DNA of 64,000 nt from Candidatus Zixiibacteriota bacterium (GCA_028289585.1 JANQPI010000029.1:12169-76168); one strand, 5' to 3'. Shown: positions 5,285 to 7,638, numbered from the stretch's first letter. Program-made: numbers and translations. The notes: generated by a model from the letters alone, not told the origin.

Positions 5285-6172
5285 ATGTTGAAACTAAGAA
5301 GTGTTGAGCATTTATGTTACTTTTTGAATCTACCTGAATCACGAATCATCGAATTGTCTACCAATTCACAGCGTTACTACCGAAAGAAACTGCGGCAGAT
5401 TAAAGGCAAGGTAAGAACAATATCGATTCCCAATAGATCTTTGAAGCCTGTTCTTAGAAAGCTTAATGACTCACTTCAGTCGCTGCCCATACATCCCTGT
5501 TTCCATGGGGGAATTGCTCGCAGAAGTATCAAGACACATGCTGGTCGACATACCAGTAAGCAGGTGGTTCTAAGTCATGACATCAACGACTTCTTTCCGT
5601 CTGTCGGAGAAGCGATGGTGATTAAGTGCTTTCGACAGCAGCTTCATTGCTCGCAAGGAGTGGCAGATTTACTGGCCGGACTGGTATGCTGTGATGGGTG
5701 TCTGCCCCAAGGTTCGCCCGCCAGCAGTATTGTAGCAGCATTGTGTTTAACTCCATTAGCTAGGCGGCTTGAATCGTTCACCAAGCACAGACGTCTTAGA
5801 CTAAGCATCTATGTGGATGACATCACTGTTTCGGGTAACGAAAAGGACATGAAGAGAGCGGAGCCCATACTCTTGCAAATCATAGAACAGGAAGGGTTTA
5901 CCCATAACGTCAAGAAGCGTTCATACCAACAATCTGACGAGGTCCAGACTGTAACGGGACTGGTTGTTAACAACGGTCTTCGAATTCGTGCCGAGTATCT
6001 CAGAGACATTGACCGTAGCCTTATGGAAGCTGAACTTGATCTGCTTCGCGGAGTGCGCTTGACGGCATCGAGACTCAGGACAGTCTCTGGGAAGATCGCG
6101 TATGTTAGCTCGATTGAGCCCGATAAGGGGTTGGCTCGTCGGCAGCGACTCAGGGAACTTGTTGAGGTTTAG
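5285..6172 (+). CDS. Retron-type reverse transcriptase
   Basis: RT motifs DINDFFPS, LPQGSPASS and YVDD, retron region-X-like HAGRH (NAxxH variant) and region-Y VTGLVVN. 295 aa, with no maturase or endonuclease domain. Confidence 0.92.
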   Translation: MLKLRSVEHLCYFLNLPESRIIELSTNSQRYYRKKLRQIKGKVRTISIPNRSLKPVLRKLNDSLQSLPIHPCFHGGIARRSIKTHAGRHTSKQVVLSHDINDFFPSVGEAMVIKCFRQQLHCSQGVADLLAGLVCCDGCLPQGSPASSIVAALCLTPLARRLESFTKHRRLRLSIYVDDITVSGNEKDMKRAEPILLQIIEQEGFTHNVKKRSYQQSDEVQTVTGLVVNNGLRIRAEYLRDIDRSLMEAELDLLRGVRLTASRLRTVSGKIAYVSSIEPDKGLARRQRLRELVEV

Positions 6173-6173
6173 G

Positions 6174-7418
6174 ATGCCCACGACCCAAGCTAAACCATAC
6201 TCCGTCACTGCCATCACCAAGCTCATCAAAGGGCAGCTTGAGGAGATGTTCGGTACCGTCTGGGTCACCGGCGAACTAACCGGTTACCTGCACCACCGCT
6301 CCGGACATCATTACTTCTCGCTCAAAGACCCGAACGCGGTGCTCAAATGTGTCATGTGGCGTTCGGTCGGTCAGTACCTCAAGTTTCAGCCGGAAAACGG
6401 CCAGCAGTTGATCGCCCAGGGGGATATCACTGTCTATGAGAAAGGCGGGCAGTACCAACTCAACGTCCGCAAGCTGATCCCGGTCGGTGTCGGCGAACTC
6501 GAGCTGGCGTTTCGCCAGCTGTACGAACGGCTGTCGGCCGAGGGACTCTTCGACGACTCCCGCAAACGTCCGATCCCCGAGTACCCGACCCGCATCGGTG
6601 TCGTCACTTCCCCGACCGGGGCGGCGATTCGGGATATCATCCAAATCGCCCGTCGCCGCAACCCGGCCGTGCAGCTCGTCATCTATCCGGCGCAGGTACA
6701 GGGGGACGGTGCCGAGCGGACAATCGCTGAAGGGATTCGCTACTTCTCCGATGCGAAGAACGTCGACCTGATTATCACCGGCCGGGGGGGAGGATCACTG
6801 GAGGACCTGTGGTGCTTCAACACCGAGACCGTCGTCCGGGCGATCGTCGCCTCGGAGCTGCCGGTCGTCTCAGCGGTTGGCCACGAGGTCGACACGACGC
6901 TGGCCGACCTCGCCGCCGATCTTCGCGCCCCGACCCCGTCGGCTGCGGCGGAACTGACCGTCTGGTCCCGCTCGGAGTTCGCTGGCATGATCCGCGGTCA
7001 GGTCGCCGTCCAAACGGCCGCCCTGCGCGAACGGCTGGTCGATGCCCGGGCGACCCTTGCGGCGCTCCGCTCCCGACCCGTTTTCGCCCGCCCCGAGCGG
7101 CTCATCGCCGACCGTCGCCAGCACCTCGACACCCAGATTCGCCTCCTGGCCGCCGGGGGAAAAAGTAATTGGGCAGCCGCGCGGTCCCGGCTATCATTGG
7201 CGATCAGTCGACTGGAGACGCTCTCGCCACTGGCGATTCTGAAGCGCGGCTACGCCGTTCTCCGAATTCCCGAGACCGGCGAGCCGGTCCGATCGGCCGA
7301 GGCGGTGCCGCCCGGCACCCGGTTGGATGCCATGCTCGCCGATGGCACCCTGAGAGTTCTGGTTGAAAAGCGATTGGGCGCGGTGCATGTCAGCAAAGAC
7401 GCGGAAGAAGACGTATAA
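6174..7418 (+). CDS. xseA: Exodeoxyribonuclease VII large subunit
   Basis: ATG at 6174 (MPTTQAKPYSVTAIT). OB fold (VWVTGE, GHHYFSLKD) plus RGGGSLEDLW, SAVGHEVD and APTPSAAAE. Confidence 0.96.
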   Translation: MPTTQAKPYSVTAITKLIKGQLEEMFGTVWVTGELTGYLHHRSGHHYFSLKDPNAVLKCVMWRSVGQYLKFQPENGQQLIAQGDITVYEKGGQYQLNVRKLIPVGVGELELAFRQLYERLSAEGLFDDSRKRPIPEYPTRIGVVTSPTGAAIRDIIQIARRRNPAVQLVIYPAQVQGDGAERTIAEGIRYFSDAKNVDLIITGRGGGSLEDLWCFNTETVVRAIVASELPVVSAVGHEVDTTLADLAADLRAPTPSAAAELTVWSRSEFAGMIRGQVAVQTAALRERLVDARATLAALRSRPVFARPERLIADRRQHLDTQIRLLAAGGKSNWAAARSRLSLAISRLETLSPLAILKRGYAVLRIPETGEPVRSAEAVPPGTRLDAMLADGTLRVLVEKRLGAVHVSKDAEEDV

Positions 7419-7638
7419 GACCTACGAGGATGCCGTAGCGCGTCTCGAGGAGATTACCGACCAGCTCGAAGCGGGGGAGGCCGGGCTCGATGAATCGATC
7501 GCGCTCTACACCGAGGGGCTCGAAATCGCCCGCTTCTGCGACGCCAAACTGAGCGAGGCCGAAAAGACGATCGTCCAAATCACCAAAGAAAACGACTTTG
7601 TCACCGAGGTCCCGCTCGACGAGGCCGATAACTCGTGA
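7387..7638 (+). CDS. xseB: Exodeoxyribonuclease VII small subunit
   Basis: TYEDAVARLEEITDQLEAGEAGLDESIALYTEG; located between xseA and ispA. Confidence 0.93.
   Translation: MSAKTRKKTYKTYEDAVARLEEITDQLEAGEAGLDESIALYTEGLEIARFCDAKLSEAEKTIVQITKENDFVTEVPLDEADNS

Follow-up and report, generated by a model that had tools for sequence, protein, structure and literature searches.

A foreign Type VI retron cassette in place of the predicted leaderless promoter of xseA in a Candidatus Zixiibacteriota bacterium

The retron cassette and the operon that it abuts

The DNA analyzed here is a stretch of 64,000 nucleotides (nt) from a Candidatus Zixiibacteriota genome (GCA_028289585.1, JANQPI010000029.1:12169-76168), referred to below as the window. 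It carries a retron whose reverse transcriptase (RT) gene stops 1 nt before the start codon of xseA, the gene for the large subunit of exonuclease VII (Exo VII), which is followed by xseB, ispA, and dxs. An earlier interpretation of this locus (here called the sequence-only reading) had taken this contact as a possible sign that the retron co-expresses the nuclease that processes its own msDNA (multicopy single-stranded DNA), and/or that it now drives an essential operon. The comparisons described below argue against the first of these ideas and point to a foreign cassette inserted at the site of the predicted native promoter of xseA. The elements on which the argument turns are the following:

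~4245-6172, + strand: retron cassette, consisting of a promoter, a structured noncoding RNA (ncRNA), a small open reading frame (ORF), a helix-turn-helix (HTH) gene, and the RT gene
4245-4273, + strand: predicted retron promoter (TTGACA, 17 nt, TGtTACCCT)
4280-4680, + strand: predicted retron ncRNA, called from its fold energy, that would form the 5' portion of a hyRNA-like transcript
4681-5016, + strand: small ORF of 111 amino acids (aa), a candidate SP toxin by position, strong Shine-Dalgarno (SD) site, and overlap with the HTH gene
4985-5278, + strand: Cro/C1-type HTH protein, 97 aa (PADLOC HTH_VI, 3.3e-22; Pfam HTH_3, 9e-15)
5285-6172, + strand: retron RT, 295 aa, full length (PADLOC RT_VI, 2.1e-61)
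6164-6176, + strand: junction, with an SD-like GAGG in the last RT codons, the RT stop TAG, 1 nt, and the xseA ATG
6174-7418, + strand: xseA, Exo VII large subunit (TIGR00237, 1.9e-136)
7387-7638, + strand: xseB, Exo VII small subunit (TIGR01280, 5e-19, 68 bits)
7635-8525, + strand: ispA (Pfam polyprenyl_synt, 2.7e-63), with a GTGA overlap with xseB
8528-10495, + strand: dxs (Pfam DXP_synthase_N, 7e-119)

In the classification of Mestre et al. (2020), Type VI retrons are recognized, among other features, by their RT clade and by a Cro/C1-type HTH gene (cluster 2_1) directly upstream of or overlapping the RT gene, and both of these were found here, the HTH gene ending 6 nt before the RT start. 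As in other Type VI retrons, RT_VI and HTH_VI were the best matches among the hidden Markov models searched; the RT covered positions 5-275 of the 279 in RT_VI, with RT_III-A as the next best match (5e-53). The protein carries the motifs YVDD, QGSP, and VTG as well as all invariant motifs in the alignment, and it may be able to produce RT-DNA. The order of promoter, ncRNA, small ORF, Cro/C1 HTH, and RT is also that of Retron-Vpa2 and Eco12 (bioRxiv 10.1101/2025.10.22.683967) and of Retron-Sen3 (10.64898/2026.04.27.721009), and the two preprints describe for Type VI the layout SP-HTH-RT with a hybrid ncRNA/SP transcript.

The predicted noncoding parts of the cassette would fit this assignment. 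The predicted ncRNA folds at -158.5 kcal/mol (z = -3.45), with none of 100 shuffled sequences being equally stable, and a 13-nt inverted repeat with 92% complementarity (4337-4349/4702-4714) links it to the small-ORF coding region, a candidate long-range pairing of the kind known from Type VI retrons; a search of Rfam matched it to no retron ncRNA family. The promoter at 4245 lies 740 nt 5' of the HTH gene and, since 15 of 30 other Type VI loci have a TTGAC-type promoter 555-800 nt 5' of this gene, is probably part of the cassette. Small ORFs occupy the equivalent position in most related RT loci. The one found here has an AGGAGG SD site and a hydrophobic C-terminal part like that of other Type VI small ORFs and overlaps the HTH gene by 32 nt, but at 111 aa it is longer than those of the described Type VI clusters (75-79 aa), to which it has no detectable similarity. 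It also lacks sequence similarity to the small ORFs of the related loci and matched no family in Pfam, PADLOC, or TIGR searches. A hairpin (TTCCC-TTAT-GGGAG, 4674-4687) surrounds its start codon directly 3' of the AGGAGG, which is consistent with the translational repression reported for the SP of Retron-Vpa2 (bioRxiv 10.1101/2025.10.22.683967).

The RT likewise stands apart from its Type VI relatives. Its closest homologues are 36-40% identical, nothing found exceeds 40%, and residues ~83-89 (window positions 5530-5550) read HAGRH, a HAxxH motif, where at least 90% of the closest homologues have NAxxH. By its RT clade and upstream HTH gene, the element is a divergent member of the known retron Type VI, here in a poorly studied phylum. 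Truncation or extension of the RT C terminus by the junction was considered and rejected: the protein ends level with its shortest homologues, and at most a short tail may have been lost.

The missing leaderless promoter of xseA

Direct reading of the junction gave ...GTT GAG GTT TAG G ATG CCC..., with G as base 6173. This bears out two observations of the sequence-only reading, namely, that the RT stop (TAG, 6170-6172) lies 1 nt from the xseA start (ATG, 6174-6176) and that the last RT codons contain a GAGG (6164-6167), six nt 5' of that ATG. The ATG at 6174 is the homologous xseA start, relatives aligning from residues 1-9 of the 414-aa reading; the N terminus is MPTTQAKPYSVT here versus MPEQPKAYTVT and similar sequences in relatives. 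An in-frame ATG farther upstream (6102), with which xseA would overlap the RT gene, was rejected, as it has no counterpart in the relatives' N-terminal alignment.

In 20 of the 29 relatives' xseA loci retrieved, a regular expression located TTGCnn-N17/18-TAnnnT (often TATACT) 5-6 nt before the xseA ATG, without an SD site, and inspection by eye raised the number to about 24. By its form and position this motif is predicted to be a sigma70-type promoter giving a leaderless mRNA; it was found consistently nowhere else in the relatives' xseA-xseB-ispA-dxs loci. Across a whole family and order of the phylum, its -35 element is nearly always TTGC, with an 18-nt spacer, and the motif lies within the ~45 nt upstream of each ATG. 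The genome to which the window belongs appears to use such starts more widely: for ATGs that open ORFs of 100 aa or more, the distance from promoter-like motifs has a sharp peak at 5-9 nt, with counts of 13, 22, 20, 11, and 10 versus a background of ~3-4, suggesting that several dozen of its genes are leaderless.

In the window, the leaderless xseA motif is absent and the RT 3' end stands in its place. At most six nt of native sequence (TTTAGG) remain before the xseA ATG, which puts the right end of the insertion no more than ~6 nt from it. Displacement of the native promoter to the left end of the insertion was also considered and rejected: nowhere in the window does TTGCN15-19TATAMT match, and the TTGACA promoter found at 4245 belongs to the conserved parts of Type VI cassettes, as described above. 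We conclude that the predicted native promoter of xseA has been lost at this locus. No terminator-like site was detected on the + strand between 4687 and 8377, the RNA around the junction (6090-6260) shows no unusual structure (fold z = +0.5), and a scan for TTGnnn-N15-19-TAnnnT gave no match over 5320-7168, hence none within the RT gene's final 850 nt. Unlike Retron-Vpa2, Eco12, and Retron-Sen3, this cassette abuts a host operon without a spacer. Related Type VI cassettes mostly share the lack of a terminator after the RT gene, and several are followed by co-directional ORFs within 0-40 nt. In two loci from metagenome-assembled genomes (L049, Sedimentisphaerales; L054, Phycisphaerales), a co-directional ORF of 1135-1172 aa directly follows a Type VI-like RT, with its start +2 and -36 nt from where the RT stop codon ends; both ORFs may be additional large effectors.

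The two sides of the junction differ in composition and in distribution. GC content at third codon positions (GC3) is 0.45-0.52 (~0.48) in the retron genes versus 0.67-0.78 in uvrC, the outer membrane protein (OMP)-like genes described below, xseA, xseB, ispA, and dxs, and the step coincides exactly with the RT/xseA junction. A retron-type RT was found in 4 of 40 relatives, in none of them at the xseA locus, and is absent from the other 36, while all 40 have xseA. Downstream of xseA, the 29 loci carry xseB, ispA, and dxs; upstream, uvrC ends 30-140 nt before xseA in most of them (at least 15 relatives). Here, an additional 3.85 kb that holds two OMP-like genes and the retron separates the uvrC end (2319) from the xseA start (6174). 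On these grounds, the retron is a newcomer of foreign origin, and xseA is native and in its ancestral synteny.

Both xseA and xseB are genuine Exo VII genes. The xseA product scored 455 bits against TIGR00237 (cut-off 180) over positions 1-388 of 389 and is 55-62% identical to its relatives, with synteny kept. The xseB gene overlaps the end of xseA by 32 nt, its ATG at 7387 sharing the frame of the TTG listed at 7363. In this 99.6%-complete genome, xseA, xseB, dxs, and the RT gene are each present in one copy. Dxr is present and HMG-CoA reductase absent, so that the methylerythritol phosphate (MEP) pathway is probably the sole route to isoprenoids and dxs probably essential.

A second insertion at the same site was found in a genome of another genus, G023 (locus L008). 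There, an unrelated 334-aa ORF (L008:2698-3702, - strand) lies between uvrC and xseA, with a GC content of 0.475 versus 0.555 for the adjoining xseA; it stops (TAA) 3 nt short of the xseA ATG, and this locus, too, lacks the leaderless promoter. The ORF has predicted membrane segments and matched no Pfam or PADLOC family. Given that a like junction arose twice with different cargo, it appears to be a property of the site and not of retrons, which suggests that tight abutment is favored by selection when an insertion precedes a gene without an SD site.

The search for traces of the insertion event turned up no flanking direct repeats or target-site duplication bracketing the cassette, and inspection of the ORFs of positions 1-14000 revealed neither an integrase nor a tRNA. 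Retron-Ec107 of E. coli is reported to be a minimal retron that took the place of a short intergenic sequence (Herzer et al. 1992). The cassette described here would resemble it as a small element in an intergenic gap between housekeeping genes, without integrase or flanking repeats. It would differ from it in that a predicted functional promoter of a leaderless gene was replaced and in that 1 nt separates the end of the cassette from the start codon that follows.

Other features of the region are the following:

499-2319, + strand: uvrC, the ancestral upstream neighbor of xseA (Pfam UvrC domains)
2414-3253 and 3464-4114, + strand: two paralogous beta-barrel OMP-like genes (weak OMP_b-brl Pfam matches)
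7169-7197, + strand: candidate internal promoter in xseA (TTGGGC, 17 nt, TATCAT)

The two OMP-like genes share 29% identity and have a host-like GC3 of 0.69-0.78; nothing similar was found within 1.5 kb upstream of xseA in relatives, and the gap between uvrC and xseA is in this respect a variable spot in the family. Short GC-rich hairpins without a T-tract follow the uvrC stop (2320-2420: CCCAC-TTT-GTGGG, CCCGC-AAA-GCGGG, and CCACCG-TAAA-CGGTGG) and may be elements like repetitive extragenic palindromes or a noncanonical terminator.

Retrons and xseA across genomes

Enrichment of retron RT genes directly upstream of xseA had been proposed as a check on the sequence-only reading. A GTDB-wide scan with an alignment of the RT clade yielded 80 loci, together with as much as 6 kb of flanking sequence; an HTH gene stands directly upstream of the RT gene in 25 of them, and none has xseB, dxs, or xseA itself near it. 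The RT_VI model, run on 285 genomes of the same phylum, added 13 loci (flanks of 1.5 kb), again with none next to xseA. Viewed from the other side, no RT gene occurs near xseA in 31 metagenomic xseA loci or in the 29 from relatives. The adjacency is therefore unique against 93 other related RT loci and ~60 xseA loci, and the enrichment did not materialize; nor does xseA show the recurrence by which retron-associated genes are defined. By chance, about 1 in 6000 retrons would be found directly upstream of xseA with the two genes in one orientation, and a single such case, selected post hoc from a scan of very large size, is nothing out of the ordinary. Real as the adjacency is, it amounts, as an association between retrons and xseA and as far as these genome comparisons reach, to no more than what chance gives.

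The literature is in line with this result. That Exo VII is a known msDNA-processing factor, as the sequence-only reading stated, holds for Retron-Sen2, Eco9, and Eco7, whose msDNA it matures by trimming (bioRxiv 10.1101/2020.06.22.160168; PMC12673091). In the case of Retron-Sen2, the retron is stated to have no linkage with xseA and xseB (bioRxiv 10.1101/2020.06.22.160168). As in these three cases, a retron and Exo VII are present here in one cell, and trimming by Exo VII is possible in principle; the three, however, are retrons of Types I and II without genetic linkage to xseA/xseB, and no Exo VII role has been reported for Type VI. Neither xseA nor Exo VII is mentioned in the systematic census of retron-associated genes (Mestre et al. 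2020), Exo VII is not mentioned in either Type VI preprint (10.1101/2025.10.22.683967; 10.64898/2026.04.27.721009), and our literature search found no link between Type VI retrons and Exo VII.

How the junction may have arisen and what it may mean

The reading that we favor, with a probability of roughly 0.6, is that a horizontally acquired anti-phage Type VI cassette was put before xseA and its native promoter removed, in a one-off insertion with a selected tight junction and no partnership with Exo VII. A cassette bringing its own promoter would have integrated into the variable gap between uvrC and xseA-xseB-ispA-dxs and replaced the promoter of the formerly leaderless xseA. Transcripts from the retron promoter, or from farther upstream, would read through the terminator-less RT end into xseA, as is to be expected when no terminator stops retron transcripts. 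As a consequence, xseA would now be an internal cistron, translated by coupling to the RT gene (stop, 1 nt, start) and/or by way of the GAGG, a combination that would allow either reinitiation or direct initiation on xseA. Insertions that left a long spacer without an SD site would silence xseA, lower the expression of the tightly coupled xseB-ispA-dxs, and be lost, and this selective filter would explain the tight junctions. The second suggestion of the sequence-only reading, that the retron now drives or feeds the xseA operon, is thereby structurally plausible, and it gains strength from the conserved, predicted leaderless promoter that relatives carry exactly where the RT 3' end now lies.

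Several observations weigh against this account. An extended -10-like sequence, TGGTATGCT, lies at 5682 inside the RT gene, and as promoters were scanned by consensus, a weak or noncanonical one inside this gene may escape. The candidate promoter at 7169-7197 could serve xseB-ispA-dxs apart from the retron, and a similar motif stands at the same xseA residue (~333) in six relatives. Alternatively, this motif may be a by-product of coding constraint: matches to TTGnnn-N16-18-TAnnnT recur at fixed codons both there and at the FQIxDD motif of ispA (residue ~217), the latter indicating that coding constraint can mimic promoters in such scans. Finally, neither an empty site nor a same-genus relative was found, the best xseA identity being 62% in GTDB and 58-61% in the metagenome scan.

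It is also conceivable that the adjacency is purely physical, with xseA being expressed from an unrecognized promoter in the 3' half of the RT gene and the retron neither driving nor constraining the operon. Many real promoters escape simple consensus scans, TGGTATGCT could be one of them, and a leadered mRNA would be served by the GAGG wherever upstream it began. Against this stand the lack of any TTGnnn-N15-19-TAnnnT match in 5320-6173, the complete disappearance of a strongly conserved native promoter, and the lack of a terminator or stable hairpin that could halt read-through from the retron, and we regard such a promoter as a doubtful explanation, if one to be taken seriously. A misassembly, in which the low-GC retron was stitched into a metagenome bin, would account for the abrupt change in composition at the junction, and the genome is indeed a draft of 55 contigs. 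Yet both flanks rejoin one syntenic block, with uvrC upstream and xseA downstream, two precise chimeric joins would be needed within a 92.6-kb contig, and the retron is complete and in operon-like register with xseA; an artefact is therefore extremely improbable.

The remaining possibility is the one from which the sequence-only reading had started, namely, that the retron was placed or kept upstream of xseAB so that co-expressed Exo VII processes its reverse-transcribed DNA. The trimming of msDNA in Retron-Sen2, Eco9, and Eco7 speaks for it, and stop-1 nt-start would give stoichiometric co-expression. However, xseA occurs within 1.5-6 kb in none of the 93 related RT loci; it is the host's sole, housekeeping copy in ancestral synteny, and the retron is, judged from GC3, a recent arrival. 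Moreover, none of the retrons with an established dependence on Exo VII is linked to xseA, the census of retron-associated genes and the two Type VI studies are silent on it, and an unrelated ORF abuts xseA in the same manner in G023. We consider such a partnership very unlikely; the contact between retron and xseA offers no evidence for a new retron-nuclease system, and the idea should not be carried forward.

Beyond the insertion itself, it is tempting to speculate that operon capture acts as a form of genomic addiction, the retron having replaced the sole promoter of the leaderless operon and so become the transcriptional and, by stop-start coupling, the translational entry to an operon that ends in essential genes of the MEP pathway. 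We offer this extension tentatively. If it were true, the retron promoter, and possibly the HTH regulator, would control housekeeping genes, and selection would act against cells that cleanly lost or silenced the retron. The ORF at the same position in G023 would then suggest recurrent anchoring of incoming genes at leaderless operons.

For the lineage, these comparisons indicate that xseA heads a conserved, predicted leaderless operon whose promoter was replaced by two independent foreign insertions, ending 1-3 nt from its start codon. The locus would thus offer a natural example of a gene without an SD site that survives as an internal cistron, and it illustrates how a defense cassette that comes to control the expression of essential genes could be difficult to lose.

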